Positions 10,018 through 52,376 of a stretch of 54,895 bases of DNA are shown one piece after another. Position 1 is the first letter of the stretch. Each line of letters starts with the position of its first letter. The position numbers and the translations under genes are program-made. The DNA is from an uncultured Anaerolineales bacterium. GTDB taxonomy: Bacteria > Chloroflexota > Anaerolineae > B4-G1. The notes under the pieces were generated by a model, which had not been told where the DNA came from, made no database searches, and saw only the letters and a program-made list of their open reading frames with translations. Location of the stretch: positions 1 through 54,895 of the forward strand of contig CAZMOT010000004.1 of NCBI GenBank assembly GCA_964568065.1. The letters run 5' to 3'.

Positions 10018-11903
10018 TGGAACAGGAGGAGGAAAAAGGGTTGAATCGGCGATCGGGCTCCAACCGTTTGGCGCTGGTTGTCATCCTCGTGGGTCTGCTC
10101 GCAGGACTGGTGCTCATAGCAACCTTCAGGGACTACCTGCGCTCGCCTCAGGCCCTCTACCGCGAGGCCCAGGGCGCGAGGCCAGAGCGGGCGGTTGTGC
10201 TATATGAGCGGCTGGCCGAGAAGCTGCCGCAGATAGAGGAGTATGCCCGGCTGTGGGCGGCCGAGGTCGCCATGCCAGACCTGGAAGCGCTGCGCACACT
10301 GCAGGCTGTCGTCGCTTTCCGGCCTCAGAGTCCGGCCGCCCTCCAGGCGCACATCGCGATAGCGCGTCACTACGCGAGCGTCGAGGCGCCAGAGGCGGAA
10401 GACGAGTATCGAGCGGCCTTGGCTCTGCACGACACGACCGTGACGGGCGTCGCCTTGCGCCTGGAACTGGCGCGCTACCTGGAGGAGCAAGGAGACGACG
10501 AGGGAGCCTACGCCGAGTACCTCCATATCCTCGGCGAGCGACCGGATGCTTTCACCGGGATGCGTCGCACCGGGCATGATCCGCTGGCCGTAGCCGAGGA
10601 CCTGAACGCCGCCACTTGGTACAGTGATGCCCTGGAGACGCTGCAAGGGATTGATGATCCCGAAGCACTTCCCCTGCGTGCACAGGCACTGGCCGGACTG
10701 GCCCGCTATGAGGAGGCAGAGGCGACCTATCAGGCCTGGCTGGAGGAGATGCCCGATGATGGGGCGGCTCAGTTTGGTATGGCCCGGGTCCTTGTGCGCC
10801 TTGGCCGTCCCGACGAGGCGCTATCTCTCTACCGGACGATTGATACGCTGGATAGCCAACTGGCCCAGGCTGAGTTGCTGGAAGAGAAAGAGCCTGACAA
10901 AGCCCTGGCGCTCTATCTGGACTCCCCCTACCCGGTGGCCTGGTGGTCCGCGACCACGATGCTGGATGAGCAAGGGCGGCTGACGGAGACGTTGCCCATC
11001 TATGCCCGCCTGGGGAGAACACACACCTATCTCGCCGACGACGCTGCATACCGGTTCTACGTCCTCGCCCAGAGAATAGGGAATGAAGAGGCCCAGGCTG
11101 AGGGTGAGGCACTGCTGGACAGGTTTGGTCTGAATTGGCTGGCGCTGCGGGCCACCGCGGATGAGCTCAGGCTGAACACAGCGCCACCGTTGGCCACCGC
11201 AGGTGACGACATTCTGGACAAGGCCAGGGCCCTGGAGTTGATTGGGCGCGAGGACCTGGCACATCAGGAATTCGTGTTGGCCGCTCGATTTCGGCGTGCG
11301 CCGGAGGTGGACCTGGCGATGGCGGAACCATTGGCCTCGAGGGGCTATGTGGTCGAGGCTCAGGCCATCGCCGAGGCGTATATAAAAGATCACCCGCGAG
11401 CCCCTCTGGCCTTCTGGCAGTTGAGCTATCCGAGGCCCTATTCGGCCACAGTGGAAGCAGCGGCGGCAGAGTTCGACGTAGACCCGCAGCTCTTATGGGC
11501 CATCATGCGCCAGGAGAGCCGGTATGATCCGGAGGCTTTCGGCTACGCTGGAGAACGGGGCTTGATGCAGGTCATACCATCAACCCAGGACTGGATCGCC
11601 GAGCAGTTGGGGGAGGACATCTCGCCCGGAGCTGCCTTCACTCCGGAGGCCAACGTTCGCCTGGCGGCATGGTTCTTGCGCTTCCTGCTCGACTACTACG
11701 ATGGCGACCTGGAGCTGGCTGTTCTTGCCTATAATGGCGGCGCCGGCAGCGTGGATACCTGGCAAGCGAATCCCCTGGTCTCAAACCGAGACGACCTGCT
11801 GCGTTGGATTGGGTTTGGGTCAACACGGGAGTATCTGGAGCGAGTGTCTTTAGACTACCGAATTTATCAAGAATTATACGCCAGTGGCAGCAATAGGGAA
11901 TAA
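10014..11903 (+). CDS. Membrane-anchored TPR-containing lytic transglycosylase (Slt-like)
   Basis: N-terminal TM; SLT motifs AIMRQESRY, GLMQVIPST, AYNGG, TREYLERV; start overlaps the upstream stop. Confidence 0.92.
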   Translation: MMEQEEEKGLNRRSGSNRLALVVILVGLLAGLVLIATFRDYLRSPQALYREAQGARPERAVVLYERLAEKLPQIEEYARLWAAEVAMPDLEALRTLQAVVAFRPQSPAALQAHIAIARHYASVEAPEAEDEYRAALALHDTTVTGVALRLELARYLEEQGDDEGAYAEYLHILGERPDAFTGMRRTGHDPLAVAEDLNAATWYSDALETLQGIDDPEALPLRAQALAGLARYEEAEATYQAWLEEMPDDGAAQFGMARVLVRLGRPDEALSLYRTIDTLDSQLAQAELLEEKEPDKALALYLDSPYPVAWWSATTMLDEQGRLTETLPIYARLGRTHTYLADDAAYRFYVLAQRIGNEEAQAEGEALLDRFGLNWLALRATADELRLNTAPPLATAGDDILDKARALELIGREDLAHQEFVLAARFRRAPEVDLAMAEPLASRGYVVEAQAIAEAYIKDHPRAPLAFWQLSYPRPYSATVEAAAAEFDVDPQLLWAIMRQESRYDPEAFGYAGERGLMQVIPSTQDWIAEQLGEDISPGAAFTPEANVRLAAWFLRFLLDYYDGDLELAVLAYNGGAGSVDTWQANPLVSNRDDLLRWIGFGSTREYLERVSLDYRIYQELYASGSNRE

Positions 11904-12051
11904 GCGAAGTAGAGTGCAGCCCTCTTCTGGGATGACTCGCAGAGGTATCTCCGCCAACACTTTCTCCAAGACGTTGTCCAGCGTGTCAGCGAGTGTGTCA
12001 TCGGTTTGCTGTTTTATCTGAGATGGTATAATCATTGTGAACTCTCCCGTG

Positions 12052-12298
12052 CTAGTACCCTACCACAAAGTTTTGATAAGTTGAAGCCTATATTGTGCGA
12101 GCCGAGGCACTGATTCCTTTGAGTGAGATTTTGACGAAAAACCGCTGAAAACCGCCAAAAAGTTCACAAAGAAGCGTCCAAATTTACTAAAACTGCTAAT
12201 TTTGTAAGTTTAAGAGCCAAATCTCATCCAGCGTTAAACTCAACAAAACCAGCGCGCAAACCAGTTTACATATCAAAACTTTCGTGGCCAAGTACTAG
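12052..12298. mobile_element. MITE-like non-coding element bounded by CTAG and about 27-bp imperfect inverted repeats
   Basis: CTAGTACCCTACCACAAAGTTTTGATA versus reverse complement CTAGTACTTGGCCACGAAAGTTTTGATA; AT-rich interior with no long ORF. Confidence 0.8.
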
Positions 12299-12465
12299 TT
12301 GGTTTGTGATTAGTATCATACCAGCACAGTGAGAATTTGTCTTGTTTCAGTTGTCAAGGTTCAATCTTCGCACCCCAGGAAATATCTCGCTCCGGGTTGC
12401 GCAACCGTTACGCTAGCCCAGGTCACGGTCTGCGAAGACCGATCGGAACTGCGTTGAGCGCGATT

Positions 12466-12984
12466 TCATCTGCCTGGCCGAAAGGTATCCAGGATGCTGC
12501 GCGGCGGGAAAGTAATCGCCCTGGGCTTGCAGATGTCAGCACATGAAGTGCACCCCACCACGCATTTGAACGGTTCCACAACTTCGACCTCATCATCGGG
12601 GGTGGAGATCAGAACGCCATTCTTGCACAGCCGGAGACACACACCGCACCCGTCGCACAGTTCCGCCGCGACGGTGGGGAACCAGGGGATGTGCTCACGC
12701 GGATGCCCGCACCACGTCCCGTAGTTGACCGGCTGGGGCTTCTTGCCCTCTGCCCGCTGGTCAACATACTTGCGGTATTCGCGCAGCAGCGCCTGGGCGA
12801 AGTCATCCACCGCTGGCTTAGGAATGTAGTTGTGCGCCTGGGCGCGCTCGACCAATTTCATCCCCAGGCCCGCTTCGCCCGGCCGATGCCCCTGCTCATA
12901 CATCTCGTCGAACAACTCATCCAGTCCTTGCATCCTGGCCGGCAACCGCCCCGCCAGAATCTGACGAGAACTCAATTTCGCCAT
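12466..12984 (-). CDS. 4Fe-4S dicluster ferredoxin with N-terminal helical extension
   Basis: CDGCGVCLRLC and CVVGCTSCADIC; N-terminal GLDELF...NYIP...ALLREY; start set at ATG 12984 behind GAGGT. Confidence 0.85.
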   Translation of the reverse strand: MAKLSSRQILAGRLPARMQGLDELFDEMYEQGHRPGEAGLGMKLVERAQAHNYIPKPAVDDFAQALLREYRKYVDQRAEGKKPQPVNYGTWCGHPREHIPWFPTVAAELCDGCGVCLRLCKNGVLISTPDDEVEVVEPFKCVVGCTSCADICKPRAITFPPRSILDTFRPGR

Positions 12985-13036
12985 ACTTACCTCATTTGCG
13001 CGATCTTCCCACCGGGAAGATGCAATCCTCCGCTCA

Positions 13037-13300
13037 TCAGTCACCCTCGAAGTAGTAGAGCGATGGGATTTGCTCGAAGGCAGTACGGAACGCCGGCTTG
13101 AGCCGATCGTAGGCCCAGACGGCCTCCACGTCTCGCAGTTGTGGGCCGCCCAGCAAGTGTTTCACCAATCGGAGGGCATTGACGCCGCCGCCCACGTCCT
13201 CGCCTTGGCGCATCAGCGCGCCGACGGCATCCTCGATAAAGGCTGGCGTCAATCGGCGCTGAAGCTCTTCAATCTGCTGCCCCAACTCTTTGTATGCCAC
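13037..13300 (-). CDS. Small hypothetical protein of the ArsR operon
   Basis: GGAGG RBS before GTG 13300; protein-like composition; fills the operon gap. Confidence 0.65.
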   Translation of the reverse strand: MAYKELGQQIEELQRRLTPAFIEDAVGALMRQGEDVGGGVNALRLVKHLLGGPQLRDVEAVWAYDRLKPAFRTAFEQIPSLYYFEGD

Positions 13301-13325
13301 AGGCCTCACCTCCCTTACCTTACTC

Positions 13326-13627
13326 CTACCCATCTCCCCACGGCTCAGCGAAAACCAGCCAGAACCGCCCATAGCCGTCAATGTAGAAGGGCATCTGCTG
13401 TACCCCGGTTTCCAGTTTCTCCAGGAATTCCCGCGCCACGTAGATGGTCAGGTCACCGGCCTCGAAGCATATGAACCTTCGGGATTGTCGGGTGCGCCCA
13501 TCCGAGCGGACGGGCCATCGAAGAAGGCTCATCAGCCACGGCAAACCATCCGCCAGACGACGTTCAACACGCCGCCCCGCTTGCGGACAAACTCTCGGAC
13601 CCACCGTGAGGATAGTTCCGCTTTCAC
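13326..13627 (-). CDS. Candidate selenoprotein with tandem UGA-UGA (C-R-G-U-U), CC/Se-motif/HesB-like; apparent one-base frameshift near 13477
   Basis: GAGG RBS, GTG, MKAELSSRWVREFVRKRGGVLNVVWRMVCRG-TGA-TGA-AFFDGPSARMGAPDNPE; continues FICFEAGDLTIYVAREFL...FYIDGYGRFWL in the adjacent frame; SECIS-like hairpin at 13496-13515. Confidence 0.65.
13496..13515 (-). promoter_or_regulatory. Candidate bacterial SECIS hairpin
   Basis: GCCCGUCC-GCUC-GGAUGGGC; 8-bp stem with one G-U pair, G first in the loop, loop begins 21 nt after the second UGA. Confidence 0.55.
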
Positions 13628-13690
13628 TATAGCCTCTACCAAGAGCCTCTCGAACCTTATCACCGGCTGAACAGCAAAAAAGGCCTGTAG

Positions 13691-13957
13691 TTATGCCAAT
13701 CCCGCCTCGCGCAACGCGCCTACCAGGCTCTCCTTGCTCGGCGCCAGCCCCACAAACTTGACCAGGTCGCCAACGACCAGCGCCGGGGCGTTGCTGATAG
13801 CGTATTCCTCCCACTCCCTGTCGCCGGGGCCGGTGTGGAAGACGATCTCGATCTGGTCGCCAAACTCGGCCTCGATCTCCTTCAGCAATCGCTTGACCGC
13901 CACGCCGCCGGAGCAGGGCGGCACCGACACGAATGCCTCGATTCTCACTTTAGACAT
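13691..13957 (-). CDS. Small thioredoxin-fold protein, monothiol variant (PPCSGG)
   Basis: IEAFVSVPPCSGG...APALVVG...G.APSKE. Confidence 0.8.
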   Translation of the reverse strand: MSKVRIEAFVSVPPCSGGVAVKRLLKEIEAEFGDQIEIVFHTGPGDREWEEYAISNAPALVVGDLVKFVGLAPSKESLVGALREAGLA

Positions 13958-14214
13958 AGCCCACCCTCCCGCAATGCGTTATTGAGCGTCGCTTCGCTGG
14001 GGCACATCCCCTCGATGCGAATCGAGCCGTTGACCACGACTGCCGGAACGCAGAAGAGCTGGTACTCTTCGAACTTTTCCATCCCCTCCTCACCAACGTA
14101 GACAGCGAGTTCCATCTCGTCCTCGTATTTGGGCACGATCCGCTGCGCCAGTTCAACGAGCGCAACACAGCCCGGACAGGGCGGATTGCCGCTAAAGACC
14201 TCCAGTTTTACCAT
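13945..14214 (-). CDS. Small thioredoxin-fold protein (PPCPGC)
   Basis: GGAGG RBS, MVKLEVFSGNPPCPGC...CVPAVVVNG...GMCPS. Confidence 0.87.
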   Translation of the reverse strand: MVKLEVFSGNPPCPGCVALVELAQRIVPKYEDEMELAVYVGEEGMEKFEEYQLFCVPAVVVNGSIRIEGMCPSEATLNNALREGGLCLK

Positions 14215-14216
14215 AT

Positions 14217-14474
14217 TTAGCCTCCTAGTTTTTGTCTGATGATAGATACCAGTTTCTCTGCCGGCACGACCTTGCCCGTGCCGACCACCTCCTCGCCGAC
14301 GACGACCAATGGCGTGGTCATCAAGCCGTATACTTCGGCCTCTGGGCCTAGCGCGTCGAGCTTGACCACCTCCACCTGGCCGGGGAACCGCTCCACTGCT
14401 TTCTGCGCCTGTGCCTCGGCACGCTTGCAGTTGGCGCACGGCGGCGTGGTGCCAAAGACTTTGATCTGAATCAT
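14217..14474 (-). CDS. Small thioredoxin-fold protein (PPCANC)
   Basis: IKVFGTTPPCANC...YGLMTTPLVVV...GKV. Confidence 0.88.
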   Translation of the reverse strand: MIQIKVFGTTPPCANCKRAEAQAQKAVERFPGQVEVVKLDALGPEAEVYGLMTTPLVVVGEEVVGTGKVVPAEKLVSIIRQKLGG

Positions 14475-14486
14475 GGGCTTTGCCTC

Positions 14487-14747
14487 CTACAAACCTTGCG
14501 TTGCTGCACCTCGTGCAGCCCGAATCCACTCCGCGATCTCCTCCTTGCGCGGCAGGCGACCCGATGACCTGACCTCTTCGTTGATCACCAACGCTGGCGT
14601 GCTGGCGATATCATAAGCTATAATCTCGCTCATCTCTTCGACCTTGGTGAACGTCGCTTCGACACCTAGTTCACCAGCCGCTTCACGGGCCAACTCTTCC
14701 AATCGCTTACACTTGGGGCATCCAATACCCAGAATCTTGATTTCCAT
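14487..14747 (-). CDS. MTH895-type small redox-active disulfide protein (CPKC)
   Basis: MEIKILGIGCPKC...STPALVINEEV..SGRLP; GGAGG RBS. Confidence 0.92.
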   Translation of the reverse strand: MEIKILGIGCPKCKRLEELAREAAGELGVEATFTKVEEMSEIIAYDIASTPALVINEEVRSSGRLPRKEEIAEWIRAARGAATQGL

Positions 14748-14781
14748 AGGAAACCTCCTATCAGCAATAGCGAATAGCGGA

Positions 14782-16140
14782 TCAGCGTATGAACCAGCCA
14801 AAGATCAGCCCTGCAAGAGTGCTGAAGATCGTCACTAGAATTACGTATACCGCCGTCTTCTTTTTGCCGATCACCGAATTGGTGATGAGGATGGATTGCA
14901 AACTCAACTCTGGATCGGCCAGCAGGTAGGCCAGCAGTGGCCCACGGTGCATGCCTAACGAAAGGAACGTCTGGGCAATTGGCACCTCGACCAAGGTGGG
15001 GAAGTACATGAAGACGCCGAACAACACGCCGACCAGGTTGGCCCACACGGTATTGCGCCCGGCGATAGCCTCGATCCACGTCGCGGGGATGATCGCCCGC
15101 GCCATCCCGGCCAGGAATACACCTACCAGAAGCAAAGGGATAATCTGTTTGACGAAGCGCCACATCTCCCATAGCCAGTCCTGGACGTCGTAGGCGTCGA
15201 ACTTTTTGGCGGCCATCCACCACACAGCGGTGATGAGCACGATCTCCGCGATCAGCTTGCCTGTGACGCCCACGCTCAGGCCACCGGCGACCACCACGAC
15301 CTTGAAAGAAGCTACGATCAACGTCGCCGTGACCAGCCCCAGCGCCACGTAGGTCCAGGTGTTGAACCCTTCGTCCACTTTGTTCAGCCCCAGCCAGGCG
15401 GTGACGGCAATGAGGATCAGCAGGCCGATCAGGAACACGCCGTGGACGCTGACGCCCTCGATGCCAAGAGCAGCATTCGGCGGCACTACGCCGTCCAGCC
15501 AGTCCTGAAAAGTGCTGGCCCACGAGCCGGGAAGCGCGAACGTGGCATAGCTGTTCGTCAGCACGTTCACCTGTAATGTGCCCGCGAGCAGCACGCCCAG
15601 GAGCAGCGCGAAGAAGAGCCACGTTTCCCCAGATACTCTCGCACCTTGCGCGAAGGCCTGGCCGCCATTGGTGGCCTTGTTATGTGCCTCGTCATCCTGG
15701 CGGAAAAACCAGGCCATCAGCAGGCCGATGCCGATGCCAAAGATGATCGAGAGAATGATCCGCGCCAGCGCGATGTCCATCCCGATCTGCACGCCGGTGA
15801 ACGAGATCGCCAGAATGTTGACCGCCGGTCCGACGAACAGAAATGTGATCGCTGGCCCCAACCCCGCCCCCTTCTTGTAGATGCTGGCAAAGAGCGGCAT
15901 GATGGTACACGAGCAGACCGCGAGCACGAACCCGCCCAGCGCCGACGCCGGGTAGGAAATCCACCTGGGCGCGTCCCGGCCCAGGTATTTCGTGATGGCC
16001 TCCTTGGGTATCAGCGCGGCCAACGCGCCAGCGATGAAAAAGGCAGGCAGCAGGCACAGCAGGACGTGAGCGGCCAGGTAAGCCGCCAGACTGCCCAGAC
16101 CGGTTTGTAGCAATGTTGCCAGGTATTGTAGAATGCTCAA
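14782..16140 (-). CDS. ArsP/DUF318-family permease
   Basis: HVLLCLLPAFFIAG, LAVCSCTIMPLF, GAGLGPAITFL..GPAVN, MYFPTLVEVP; many TM segments. Confidence 0.92.
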   Translation of the reverse strand: MSILQYLATLLQTGLGSLAAYLAAHVLLCLLPAFFIAGALAALIPKEAITKYLGRDAPRWISYPASALGGFVLAVCSCTIMPLFASIYKKGAGLGPAITFLFVGPAVNILAISFTGVQIGMDIALARIILSIIFGIGIGLLMAWFFRQDDEAHNKATNGGQAFAQGARVSGETWLFFALLLGVLLAGTLQVNVLTNSYATFALPGSWASTFQDWLDGVVPPNAALGIEGVSVHGVFLIGLLILIAVTAWLGLNKVDEGFNTWTYVALGLVTATLIVASFKVVVVAGGLSVGVTGKLIAEIVLITAVWWMAAKKFDAYDVQDWLWEMWRFVKQIIPLLLVGVFLAGMARAIIPATWIEAIAGRNTVWANLVGVLFGVFMYFPTLVEVPIAQTFLSLGMHRGPLLAYLLADPELSLQSILITNSVIGKKKTAVYVILVTIFSTLAGLIFGWFIR

Positions 16141-16160
16141 CTTACACCTCCGTTGTCTTT

Positions 16161-16180
16161 ATATGCGATTCTCTGCATAT
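16161..16180. promoter_or_regulatory. Probable ArsR operator, copy ahead of the permease
   Basis: ATATGC-N8-GCATAT, same arms as at 16675-16694. Confidence 0.7.
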
Positions 16181-16277
16181 TTGCGCGCCCAAAAGAAGGC
16201 CGCAGCAATGGCTGCCACGGCCAGTTTTCATTTACACGAGCCAGAATCCTGCACCGATAGACACGCGACGGGCGAAG

Positions 16278-16625
16278 CTACTCACACGACACCTCAGAAT
16301 TACAGCCAGCGCACCGGGGGCACGGGCAGCCCGGTGGGTGTGTTCTCTCACCGGCTGGCCCCAGAACGGTCTCCAGCAACTGCGTGATCTGTGGATCGTT
16401 CAACCGGTAGTAGACAAGCTGACCATCTTTGCGATCCACGACCACCCCGGCCTCCCGCAGCACTCGCAACTGCTGAGAGACGTAGGCCTGGGGCCGCCCC
16501 AGCACTGCCTGGAGGTGACACACACATGCCTCGTCGCGCCGCAGTTCGTCCAGGATGCACAGCCGCGCCAGGTGAGATAGAATCTTGAATAGTCGGACCA
16601 CTTGCCGATACGCGTCTTCCTTCAT
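16278..16625 (-). CDS. arsR: ArsR/SmtB-family repressor with Cys-rich tail
   Basis: FKILSH..RL.IL..L...EACVCHL...QAYVSQQLRVLR.AG.V..RKDG..VYY; C-terminal CPCPRC. Confidence 0.93.
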   Translation of the reverse strand: MKEDAYRQVVRLFKILSHLARLCILDELRRDEACVCHLQAVLGRPQAYVSQQLRVLREAGVVVDRKDGQLVYYRLNDPQITQLLETVLGPAGERTHPPGCPCPRCAGCNSEVSCE

Positions 16626-16658
16626 TTCACCATCGGATGTTTGTTATCCGCCTTCACT

Positions 16659-16721
16659 ATATGCAGTGCAACATATATGCAATGTACCGCATATTATACA
16701 TTAGAAAGCCACTCTTGTCAA
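16659..16721 (-). promoter_or_regulatory. Consensus sigma-70 promoter with overlapping ArsR operator(s)
   Basis: TTGACA (16721-16716), 17 nt, TATAAT (16698-16693); ATATGC-N8-GCATAT 16675-16694 and an imperfect copy 16659-16678. Confidence 0.85.
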
Positions 16722-16769
16722 GCTGGCAAGGCCAGGTCGCGTCGGATGCTGTTTATCCGCGCGAATGCA

Positions 16770-16910
16770 GGGCAAGGTGGTGACGATGGTGGGAGCGGAC
16801 TGCGGGAGGTCGGCTTCCGGTTGGGGGAGACGCTGATTCTTTCGACGTTGTGCTTTGTCGTCGGGGTGGTCGTTTTCCAACGGCTGCAGATGCGAGGTAA
16901 GGAAAGCTGA
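16770..16910 (+). pseudogene. Possible 3' remnant of an ABC-2 permease gene
   Basis: GSGLREVGF...LILSTLCFVVGVVVFQRLQMR resembles a final ABC-2 TM helix; no plausible start. Confidence 0.35.
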
Positions 16911-16943
16911 GTGGCTCTGACGAGTATGACCCCTAGTGGTAGA

Positions 16944-18839
16944 TCACCTGGCATCAACCAGGCCTGCCAGCTCGTAGATGCGGGTAGGGAACTGTTGCCC
17001 CTTGATCCGTAGAGCCTCCAGTGGATTGACCAGCACACGGTCCTGTACCGCTTCCCATGTCGTATGGCAGAGGAGGATTTGCCCTGGCTGCGCCTGCCCC
17101 TGCAGGAAAAAGGCTATGTTAACCGGGTTCCCGATAGCGGTGTACTCCATACGGTCTTTAACTCCCACGTTACCAACCACGGCCTCCCCTGTGCAGATAC
17201 CTATGCCCACGGAGAGCTGCTCCTCTAGAGCAGTGTGGCGGTGGTAGGCTTCCAATGTTTCCTTCAACACCCAGGCCGTCTGCACCGCCTGCCAGGCGTG
17301 CTCCTCTTCCTCCAGCAGCGGTGTGTTGAAAAGAGCCATCACTCCGTCCCCCATGTACTTGTCCACGATGCCCCGGTGGGAGCGGACCTCTGCCACGGCC
17401 ATGGCATGGTAGGTGTTGAGCACCTCGACGACCCACTCGGGCGGGTTGATCTCGCTGAGCTTGGTGAAACCTCGGATGTCGGTAAAGAAAGCGGTGATCG
17501 CTCGCCGCTCCCCGTGCAGCCCCAGTTCAGCTAAGTCGTGGGGGAGCCGATCCACCAGTTCGGAGGGCAGGTAGCGTCGGATCAGGGCACGTTCCCGCTC
17601 GTAGCGGTGCTTCTCCGTCACGTCGTCCAGCACAATCGCTACCCCCAGAGTCTCTCCCCCGCTTCCCTCAAGCGTGGAGAGGCTCACGTTCAGGTGGAGT
17701 TGTTCTCCCTGCGGAAGGTGAGGGCTAATCTCCTGAGCAACGTAGGACGTGCGGTACCGACGCACGTCCTCGATGAGGTCAGGGAGAGAAGTGTTGCGCA
17801 GGAAACCAAGCACCTGATAGTAGGGACGGTTCTGCACTTGCCAGGCCGGGACGCGCAGGATCGTCTCAGCAGCCTTGTTAAAAGTGGTGATAATGTCCTG
17901 GGTGTCGGTGGTGATGACGCCGCTGGCGATGCTGGCGAAGATGTTGTCCATGTAGTGCTTCATCGTGGTGATCGCGTCCCGCTGCCGTCGCACATTGTCG
18001 AAGAGGCGGGCATTCTCCAGGGAGATAGCCGCCTGCCAGGCCAAGGCATATAGCAGCTTCTCGTCACCCGCCGTGAAGATCGCTCCTTTGGCTTTGCCGG
18101 CCAGGAGGATGGCCCCGAGTTGTCGCTCAGAAGTGAGCAGTGGGACGACCAGGAGCGGTATCTGCTGTTCCTCATGAGCGAACTCATTAACGATCCGAGG
18201 CTCACCTGTACGGGCCACCTCGTCCGCCAGCGCATGTCCCTCCAAGATGGCCGTCTCCAGTTCCTCCGTCAGCCCAGTACTAGCAGCGATGGTCAGTTTC
18301 TCTGACTCGTCATAGAGCAGGACTGCACCCTGGTGGGCTTGGATGATTCGGTTGGCCTCAGTTAGCACCCGTTGGAGGAGTTCGTCTATGTCCAGGCAGG
18401 TAGCCAGTTTCTCTCCCAGATTGTAAAGCAGGTTGATCTCCCGGTAGCGGTCCAGTGTCTCGCGGGCGATAGCTCGCTTCTCCAGGGTGATGCCGACCAA
18501 GAACTCCAGGGCGCGTCTCAACGCGGTCAATGCAGCTTGCGTCTGGGCTGGCGGAGGCAGCGGGCCGGCTGCCATGACCAGCCCCACCCGCCGTGTCTCT
18601 ACGCAGATGGACATTGCTGCTCCCTGGGAGGTGGTCACGAAGTCTGCCGTTTCTGGCACAGCCTTCCGGAGGGCATGGGCGACCTCCGGTGGGAAAGATC
18701 GGTGGCTTCCCAGGAGGCGGTCAGTTCCATCACTCACAGCCAAGGAAACCTCTGGCCCCAACAGGGGCGCAAAGTCCTTCAGGAGCGTCGTGATCTGCTT
18801 AGGAAGGAGGAGTTTCTTTAGACGAATCTTTCTTTCCAC
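16944..18839 (-). CDS. GAF-PAS-class III adenylate/guanylate cyclase
   Basis: GAF (FTAGDEKLL...QAAISLENARL), PAS (GVITTD...FNKAAE), FTDIRGFT, DKYMGDGVMA, YTAIGNPVN. Confidence 0.93.
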   Translation of the reverse strand: MERKIRLKKLLLPKQITTLLKDFAPLLGPEVSLAVSDGTDRLLGSHRSFPPEVAHALRKAVPETADFVTTSQGAAMSICVETRRVGLVMAAGPLPPPAQTQAALTALRRALEFLVGITLEKRAIARETLDRYREINLLYNLGEKLATCLDIDELLQRVLTEANRIIQAHQGAVLLYDESEKLTIAASTGLTEELETAILEGHALADEVARTGEPRIVNEFAHEEQQIPLLVVPLLTSERQLGAILLAGKAKGAIFTAGDEKLLYALAWQAAISLENARLFDNVRRQRDAITTMKHYMDNIFASIASGVITTDTQDIITTFNKAAETILRVPAWQVQNRPYYQVLGFLRNTSLPDLIEDVRRYRTSYVAQEISPHLPQGEQLHLNVSLSTLEGSGGETLGVAIVLDDVTEKHRYERERALIRRYLPSELVDRLPHDLAELGLHGERRAITAFFTDIRGFTKLSEINPPEWVVEVLNTYHAMAVAEVRSHRGIVDKYMGDGVMALFNTPLLEEEEHAWQAVQTAWVLKETLEAYHRHTALEEQLSVGIGICTGEAVVGNVGVKDRMEYTAIGNPVNIAFFLQGQAQPGQILLCHTTWEAVQDRVLVNPLEALRIKGQQFPTRIYELAGLVDAR

Positions 18840-52208: not shown

Positions 52209-52294
52209 CAGGTGGTCGCTGATTGCCGGGAGCAGGTCGCGGGGGGTTGCCTCATGGGCCTGTTTCCTGCAGCAAGTGACTGGCTGCAAGACGT

Positions 52295-52376
52295 GGGTCG
52301 GTGTCCCGAGCGGCAAAGGGGGCGGACTGTAAATCCGCTGGCTCAGCCTTCGCAGGTTCGAGTCCTGCCCGGCCCA
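52295..52376 (+). tRNA. tRNA-Tyr(GUA)
   Basis: GGGTCGG/CCGGCCC acceptor stem, anticodon loop CTGTAAA, long variable arm, GGTTCGAGTCC. Confidence 0.96.

Follow-up and report, generated by a model that had tools for sequence, protein, structure and literature searches.

The window analysed here, positions 1 to 54,895 (in nucleotides, nt) of contig CAZMOT010000004.1 of an uncultured Anaerolineales bacterium, carries on its minus strand an operon of nine co-oriented reading frames, running from 16625 to 12466 (operon span 16721..12466, Table 1). Judged by gene order in related genomes, this operon joins two modules that otherwise recur separately in Anaerolineae. Module 1 consists of an ArsR regulator, an ArsP-type permease and four thioredoxin-fold proteins, Trx1 to Trx4. 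Module 2 is made of a gene for an IscA-like protein with a CxxUU motif (U, selenocysteine, Sec), a gene for a protein of 87 amino acids (aa), and a gene for a 2×[4Fe-4S] protein. The 87-aa gene probably encodes an intact double-Sec protein, and the CxxUU gene, member of a predicted selenoprotein family, appears recently inactivated in this genome. We see about an even chance that the operon would detoxify trivalent arsenic-type metalloids with the help of thiol and selenol proteins. An earlier annotation of this DNA (the original prediction) had proposed a thiol/selenol relay, coupled to a ferredoxin, for a metalloid, organometal or sulfur species. Our data partly support this prediction; it was right in outline, but the operon is better described as an arsenic-type core already known, with two accessory modules particular to the lineage. 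Cores of ArsR, ArsP and a thioredoxin occur widely in anaerobes and are barely understood.

The gene order of module 1, ArsR-ArsP-Trx1-Trx2-Trx3-Trx4, was recovered in about 12 other genomes. Of 300 other genomes sampled from the class, 14, belonging to nine families, had Trx4 (E<=1e-5), as did one of 400 other genomes of a phylum-wide sample (E<=1e-15). Thirteen loci were fetched from the 14 Trx4 genomes. Eleven of them had the ordered set Trx1/Trx2-Trx3-Trx4, with ArsP directly 5' of the set in eight; in three of the eleven (L092, L094 and L095), as well as in L086, the fetched piece or the contig stops short of the expected ArsP position. One locus (L098) contained ArsP-Trx1-Trx2 only. Downstream of Trx4, the genes of module 1 loci differ and are unrelated between genomes.

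The neighbourhoods of CxxUU genes were collected by tblastn with the window proteins, and the neighbours were scanned with Pfam and NCBIfam. Taking one genome per species, 32 loci were obtained, all in Anaerolineae, from metagenome-assembled genomes of Anaerolineales or Thermoflexales. The CxxUU gene was always placed 3' of, and co-oriented with, one of four gene sets. These are ArsR-ArsP-Trx1 (L047, L049, L056), ArsR-Acr3 (L048), ArsR-ArsM-CDF or CDF alone (11 of the 32 loci, ArsM preceding CDF in four), and TauE genes together with a gene for a PF04060 Fe-S protein, behind which comes a radical SAM/SPASM enzyme that exceeds the cut-off of TIGR04317 (tungsten cofactor oxidoreductase maturase; 412 bits). 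In L035, L037, L038, L044 and others, the radical SAM/SPASM enzyme 3' of the CxxUU gene is fused to AbrB and the PF04060 protein lies 5'; L042 has an aldehyde:ferredoxin oxidoreductase fragment near the CxxUU gene. The 87-aa gene accompanies the CxxUU gene, the Fer4 protein, ArsP-Trx1 or Acr3, in varying order. As for the Fer4 protein itself (172 aa in the window), it scored near the cut-offs of the Pfam and NCBIfam Fer4 families, and its 282 clusters are labelled ferredoxin or hypothetical.

Trx2, Trx3 and Trx4 were beside a CxxUU gene in none of the 32 loci. Both modules were found together in the window only, where the CxxUU gene is broken. Genome G132 holds a second chimera (L110, G132:C72, ~1779-1841), in which ArsP-Trx1 is followed by a remnant of 21 residues that match the C-terminal part of Trx4 identically, and then by the 87-aa gene. 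This hints that the modules replace one another, but two cases prove nothing. The conserved gene order expected by the original prediction was found for each module, which recurs elsewhere, and not for the nine genes together, which are a fusion of two units.

In the relatives, the CxxUU gene has a consistent organisation. Eleven relatives of the same taxonomic order encode the whole protein in one frame with TGA TGA. Among the 32 loci, the TGATGA was present in all, a cysteine at position -3 in 31, and a Cys form of the pair in none. An 8-bp hairpin lies 13 nt past the second UGA. Its loop is GGUC in 31 of 31 aligned relatives (the 32nd, L051, was left out of the loop alignment, and its own sequence also has GGTC), and all 29 distinct rows retain its inner six pairs, which covary little. 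A search of 1.84 billion representative proteins with a CxxUU profile gave 68 matches, mostly halves cut at the UU site, among which full-length forms with CC at this site were found (P0284, P0301, P0308). With in-frame UGA, hairpin, Sec machinery and CC homologues, the gene of the relatives is, at the sequence level, that of a bacterial selenoprotein. Other full-length relatives (P0250, P0263, P0264, P0297, P0307), from low-GC-looking organisms, have G-W-W in place of G-U-U. These may be TGA-TGA codons called as Trp under code 4 or 25, and if so, the double-Sec form would reach beyond Chloroflexota.

Against NF041239 (cut-off 40), five full-length relatives scored 24.8, 27.5, 29.2, 37.0 and 42.8 bits, one of the five reaching the cut-off, and the N-terminal piece from the window 19.6 bits. 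The AlphaFold model of a relative (pLDDT 91.8) resembles IscA/SufA weakly (Foldseek E 0.03; VIA-align Z 4.9, with a root-mean-square deviation of 3.7 over 74 residues). The top seven VIA-align rows are all of the IscA/SufA-type fold, and the structures closest to the model are those of IscA/SufA and of DsrR, a protein of sulfur oxidisers.

The window copy is in two frames. Its N-terminal half (13627-13448) ends at a stop at 13450-13448 and, with TGA read as Sec at the TGA TGA of 13534-13529, gives ...VCRG-U-U-AFFDGPSARMG..., and the C-terminal half, down to 13326, is in the -1 frame. Aligned with the DNA of six relatives, it shows exactly one 1-nt gap, near 13480, and through this deletion it lacks the intact frame of NF041239. 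Its hairpin (13515-13496) has a deviant loop base at 13506, giving GCUC, a loop found only in the window. The other conserved residues are largely retained. Over the CxxUU region, Logan contigs from four runs (X2, X5, X7, X11) of four studies had 0 differences and 0 indels, although the window may itself derive from two of these runs. Since contigs of four studies match without indel, we consider the lesions real. Assembly error as the cause of the frameshift was rejected on the identity of the four runs over this part of the gene. Programmed -1 frameshifting is disfavoured, as no slippery heptamer was seen at the site and the loop of the selenocysteine insertion sequence (SECIS) is mutated too. 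The window copy thus reads as a recently inactivated gene. The candidate selenoprotein flagged by the original prediction belongs to a real family, with TGATGA in 32 of 32 relatives, but is disrupted in this genome. The disruption amounts to a natural experiment, which may show what parts of the system are dispensable.

A better selenoprotein candidate is the neighbouring gene, which had been set down as an unknown protein. Its annotated frame stops at a TGA TGA (13039-13034), followed by a hairpin with a GGU loop (13021-13003) and by the next stop at 12994-12992. In all 34 loci, the annotated frame ends with an Asp or Asn codon and TGA TGA comes next (six loci first seen, 11 more from the class sample and 17 from metagenome contigs; some may be from the same organisms, the 33 complete segments comprising 31 different ones). 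In these 31 segments, the three codons past the TGATGA carry 0, 1 and 29 substitutions at codon positions 1, 2 and 3, so that 29 of 30 fall at third positions and Ala-Glu-Asp is kept. The corresponding numbers for the 20 codons 5' of the TGATGA are 89, 49 and 252. Such a third-position bias is the pattern of translated sequence. The distance from the second UGA to the hairpin is 12 nt. Each of the 12 single-hairpin loci preserves seven of its pairs, and one pair covaries (CG in eight, UA in three, GC in one). In two metagenome copies (L133, L137), an extra in-frame TGA comes just after the hairpin (…PVER-TGA-R…).

Because of the TGA-TGA in all 34 loci, the SECIS-like hairpin and the third-position variation, we think that the 87-aa protein is probably a second, intact-looking double-Sec protein. 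The competing explanation is that TGA-TGA is a conserved double stop and the hairpin a processing or regulatory element, in which case no working selenoprotein would remain in the operon. Several facts go in this direction. The best 120 of the 322 clusters of the protein all end at residue 87, and no Cys-containing homologue is among them; the tail varies in length after AED[AC][IV]F; in nine of 33 loci an extra hairpin, with a loop other than GGU, comes first; covariation rests on one pair, as it does in the CxxUU hairpin; and in G090, a genome 92% complete that has the 87-aa gene, no selA was seen. A double stop would nevertheless leave unexplained the third-position bias over A-E-D, and the 12-nt spacing and GGU loop, which mirror those of the CxxUU gene (13 nt, GGUC) and of the genome's fdhA. 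Tandem TGA stops are also rare, ending only one of 50 long open reading frames of the window. On these grounds we find the double stop doubtful and retain the double-Sec protein. Annotations systematically miss both the CxxUU gene, which is called in truncated pieces, and the probable second selenoprotein gene, which is called as a protein of 87 aa. Neither Pfam nor NCBIfam placed the 87-aa protein in a family, the ESM Atlas gave no usable match, and its AlphaFold model (pLDDT 82.9) had no fold match (best Foldseek E 3.7).

The genome encodes selA, selB and tRNA-Sec. Its selD (G000:C23:8333-9265) and one of two fdhA genes (G000:C126:8093-9901; L116 and L118) contain one in-frame TGA each, and by this signature are selenoprotein genes themselves. 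The fdhA hairpin has the loop GGUCU, at a distance similar to that of the 87-aa hairpin. The Sec trait was rejected as a discriminator, since 347 of the 401 genomes sampled from the class carry selA (a count that includes the unpublished genomes G751 and G791). Within the window, 52294-52376 matched the tRNA-Sec model weakly (37.5 bits, gathering score 47); the match probably stems from an ordinary tRNA with a long arm, and the genuine tRNA-Sec is on contig C2.

The substrate of the operon would most likely be trivalent arsenicals (As(III), methylarsenite or similar), and possibly Sb(III). Next to the CxxUU gene, an ArsM neighbour scored 346.8 bits (cut-off 263) and Acr3 neighbours 467 and 286 bits (cut-off 282.8). 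Together with an arsenic-induced operon of similar beginning (see below), these neighbours bear out the thiophilic metalloid context proposed originally. The genome of the window encodes an ArsM outside the operon (329.5 bits, above cut-off), and no Acr3 was found in it, at 75% completeness. The regulator passes HTH_5 (36.7 bits, cut-off 22) and NF033788 (88.4 bits, cut-off 55). It has a CVC motif (EACVCHL) in the helix preceding the recognition helix and a Cys-rich C-terminal tail; compared with ELCVCDLC, the third Cys is missing. A CxC before the recognition helix is the As(III)-type site of R773 ArsR, and EACVCHL is a putative counterpart. The permease gene is the sole ArsP_1 gene found in the genome, and the cysteines C29 and C76-S-C78 of its product are invariant in 14 of 14 aligned orthologues, the CxC pair being in the membrane part. 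With 452 aa, the permease exceeds the 294 positions of the Pfam ArsP_1 model by some 150 residues, and its extra hydrophobic stretch, in mid-protein, is common to the aligned orthologues.

Other observations weigh against an arsenic substrate. The operon itself lacks arsC, acr3 and arsM. The best NCBIfam equivalog of the permease is the SO_0444 Cu/Zn exporter (107.2 bits, cut-off 300); it also scored with SaoE (74.6 bits, cut-off 325), and it belongs to neither. The regulator scores weakly with the sulfite sensor BigR (55.3 bits, cut-off 155) and with other metal sensors, so that its family match leaves the ligand unfixed. CDF (Zn/Cd-type), TauE and rhodanese genes are frequent beside module 2, as is the radical SAM enzyme TIGR04317, named for tungsten-cofactor enzymes.

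Some of these facts would suit an operon for soft metal cations (Zn, Cd, Cu, Hg), with an ArsR/SmtB metal sensor, an SO_0444-like exporter and Cys/Sec metallochaperones, all the more as a CDF transporter, scoring 221 bits with ZitB, lies directly 5' of the CxxUU gene in 11 of 32 loci. However, the SO_0444 score is far under its cut-off, the CDF gene is preceded by a bona fide ArsM in four of the CDF operons, and the CVC motif and the ArsE-type Trx1 fit an operon known to be induced by arsenic in Pseudodesulfovibrio mercurii ND132. We rate soft cations as quite improbable. Reactive sulfur, selenium or tellurium species (persulfide, sulfite, selenite, tellurite) are another candidate, improbable in our view, for which thioredoxin folds and Sec-Sec pairs would be chalcogen carriers and the permease an exporter. 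TauE/SafE and rhodanese genes indeed adjoin both modules in several genomes, and the BigR match and the IscA/SufA and DsrR resemblance of the CxxUU model point the same way. But the BigR score is one third of its cut-off, the fold matches are weak, and no neighbour other than ArsM and Acr3 passes a cut-off that assigns it a specific substrate. Trivalent arsenicals therefore remain the substrate that we prefer.

The four thioredoxin-fold proteins distinguish this operon from a simple ArsR-ArsP core. Their motifs are, as announced, CPKC, CANC, CPGC and CSGG, each visible in its translated frame. Only Trx1 passed the TIGR00412 cut-off, Trx2, Trx3 and Trx4 having 43, 31.4 and 16.2 bits. The 92.75-bit cut-off of TIGR00411 (MJ0307-type) was passed by none (28.8, 33.3 and 34.2 bits for Trx2, Trx3 and Trx4). 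The solved MJ0307 thioredoxin, 1FO5, was matched by profiles of Trx3 (E 1.7e-7) and Trx4 (E 7.8e-11). Trx3 and Trx4 thus share the MJ0307 fold, not equivalog membership. Trx2, Trx3 and Trx4 gave weaker matches to Pfam Thioredoxin_3, that of Trx4 being below cut-off (22.5 bits, cut-off 24.8), and the match of Trx2 to ArsF (NF040494, E 0.0067) extends across 34 residues only. The Trx2 motif, C[AV][NK]C, is present in 13 of 13 aligned copies. In 12 sequences, 49 columns of Trx3 and 43 of Trx4 are invariant. Trx4 is 76-94% identical between families and forms 885 clusters in public data, all labelled hypothetical or thioredoxin family. This tight conservation and wide occurrence of Trx4 point to a defined multi-protein thiol machine beside the exporter. 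No ArsD domain was among the Pfam matches at E<=0.01 of the nine operon products.

Permease and thioredoxin folds could in principle form a CcdA/DsbD-like route, moving reducing power across the membrane with no export of a substrate, and the permease does have membrane cysteines. Yet all four thioredoxin-fold proteins begin at the first strand, without a signal peptide, and neither CcdA nor an exported thioredoxin is in the operon. Moreover, ArsP of Campylobacter is reportedly a methylarsenite efflux permease. This makes such a route highly improbable, and we keep to export.

We suggest that the operon would work as follows. Binding of the metalloid to the CVC motif and Cys-rich tail of ArsR would free the promoter. 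The permease would export the metalloid via a site made of its three invariant cysteines. In the cytoplasm, Trx1 to Trx4 would capture or reduce the substrate and pass it to the permease, in the way that ArsD passes it to ArsA; alternatively, they may keep the permease thiols reduced. The CPGC of Trx3 and the lone Cys of Trx4 could form one three-thiolate site; prediction of a Trx3-Trx4 complex gave a score of 0.03 and a mark of 0.32, which counts neither for nor against such a complex. Module 2 would do a similar job with vicinal selenols. The helical 87-aa protein would run through TGA-TGA into a short tail (EGD-Sec-Sec-AED...), and the 2×[4Fe-4S] protein would supply electrons to re-reduce it and the CxxUU protein. 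The gene content, its conservation, the CxxUU lesions and the recoding signatures are observed; to these, substrate, hand-off to the permease and electron flow are added by inference, and a relay between thioredoxin-fold and ferredoxin-like proteins is pure conjecture.

A more general scheme can be proposed, which we consider rather unlikely. Two unrelated neighbouring proteins, CxxUU and 87-aa, would use invariant Sec-Sec pairs as capture and hand-over sites of metalloids for any exporter (ArsP, Acr3 or CDF), the four-Trx set being a sulfur-only alternative, and one of the two sets would decay where both meet, as in the window and in G132. If two Sec-Sec families do belong to arsenic operons, selenium use would be tied to arsenic handling in sediment bacteria.

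The operon lies between unrelated neighbours, encoding a GAF-PAS-cyclase protein and an SLT transglycosylase. The site at 16721-16693 is the only 12/12 promoter match within 11500-18000, where four sites of at least 9/12 were counted for 2.3 expected. Nine co-oriented frames behind a perfect promoter, as first described, are thus found, with the correction that the seventh gene is a pseudogene. CGGAT-N7-ATCCG occurs three times in the window for 0.29 expected, and two of the three copies bracket the promoter. As a conserved operator, this palindrome was rejected, being absent 5' of arsR in related loci. Two further repeats, one tandem of 16 nt and one inverted of 12 nt, cover the -10 region (16658-16694). 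The 137 nt that separate arsR from arsP contain a terminator-like hairpin, which may be an attenuator uncoupling arsR from the structural genes. From arsP onward, intergenic gaps are of 2-63 nt, and the end of Trx3 and the start of Trx4 overlap by 13 nt. An Rfam scan of 11800-17000 gave no match at E<=1. In agreement with the original prediction, Pfam and NCBIfam returned no ArsC, Acr3, ArsB or ArsM match for any of the nine products.

Table 1. Coordinates of the features discussed in the operon region of the window
Feature	Position	Strand	Basis or remark
Palindrome CGGAT-N7-ATCCG, copy 1	16743..16759	.	5' of the -35 hexamer; candidate ArsR operator
Promoter-like site TTGACA-17-TATAAT	16693..16721	-	12/12 match; candidate by sequence
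Palindrome CGGAT-N7-ATCCG, copy 2	16634..16650	.	between the -10 hexamer and the arsR start codon
ArsR/SmtB metalloregulator, 115 aa	16278..16625	-	Pfam HTH_5 and NCBIfam NF033788
Terminator-like hairpin, arsR-arsP gap	16198..16222	-	11 pairs, then TTCTTTT; sequence
ArsP_1-family permease, 452 aa	14782..16140	-	PF03773, 242.8 bits (cut-off 32.3)
Trx1, MTH895/ArsE-type thioredoxin-like, CPKC	14487..14747	-	TIGR00412, 98.1 bits (cut-off 62)
Trx2, thioredoxin-fold, CANC	14217..14474	-	Thioredoxin_3, 46.5 bits
Trx3, thioredoxin-fold, CPGC and three further invariant Cys	13945..14214	-	profile matches 1FO5
Trx4, monothiol thioredoxin-fold, PPCSGG, single Cys	13691..13957	-	profile matches 1FO5
Pseudogene of IscA-like CxxUU (CC/Se motif family) selenoprotein	13326..13627	-	two frames
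87-aa open reading frame, first noted as unknown	13300-13037	-	reading frame up to TGA TGA
87-aa protein read through TGA TGA	12992..13300	-	probable selenoprotein, ...EGD-U-U-AEDCIFPVGRSRK
172-aa protein	12466..12984	-	~100-aa N-terminal domain without family match, then 2×[4Fe-4S] ferredoxin domain

Several known systems resemble parts of this operon. ArsD, the As(III) metallochaperone of the ArsA pump, is a small cytoplasmic protein of thioredoxin fold which binds the metalloid via cysteines and hands it to the exporter. The likeness to Trx1-4 concerns their proposed working only; the partner in the window is a secondary permease, not an ATPase, and there are four different proteins, not one. 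In Shewanella putrefaciens, the ArsEFG proteins of Chen, Zhang and Rosen (2019) reportedly combine small thioredoxin-like proteins and an efflux permease acting on organoarsenicals, and Trx1 is in the same MTH895/ArsE family (TIGR00412).

The Sao and Tso sets, in the part of the preprint available, comprise the ArsP-family SaoE, the thioredoxin-like (seleno)proteins SaoT, TsoC and TsoX, and the ArsR-type TsoR, and Haft and Gwadz propose an organometal or metalloid chemistry for them (bioRxiv 10.1101/2022.07.06.499078). The window proteins are far below all the equivalog cut-offs compared (besides SaoE, SaoT with 26.3 bits for 65, TsoC with 22.7 for 45 and TsoR with 35.7 for 115), and the operon has neither the MerB-like lyase nor the ABC transporter of these sets.

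NF041239, the CC/Se motif family, is given in Table 1 of a 2026 review as a predicted selenoprotein family with CxxU and one Sec (PMC13188914). The CxxUU protein is likewise small, with the motif at the same position and CC forms in existence, but in Anaerolineae all 32 loci of its subfamily have a pair of adjacent Sec. The strings CxxUU, xUU, UUx, GUU, UUG and CUU are absent from the portion of the review text available, and a literature search on adjacent or tandem selenocysteine returned nothing relevant.

Nor was a description of the expanded operon found in the literature searched, as the original prediction had supposed, but its first three genes match a described ArsR-ArsP-ArsE operon. 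A redox-active disulfide protein 2 already figures among ars operon genes in a 2010 survey, in the section available (PMC2963123). The closest described case is 'operon C' of P. mercurii ND132, arsR5-arsP-arsE(PF13192)-(DGC protein), which according to the available part of the preprint is up-regulated with As(III)/As(V) (bioRxiv 10.1101/2022.10.17.512643). Like operon C as described there, the window operon has an ArsR, an ArsP-type permease and a PF13192/MTH895-type thioredoxin-like protein; unlike it, the window has no PF08859 (DGC) protein. To this set the window adds three Trx paralogues, a broken CxxUU gene, a probable Sec-Sec protein and a 2×[4Fe-4S] protein.

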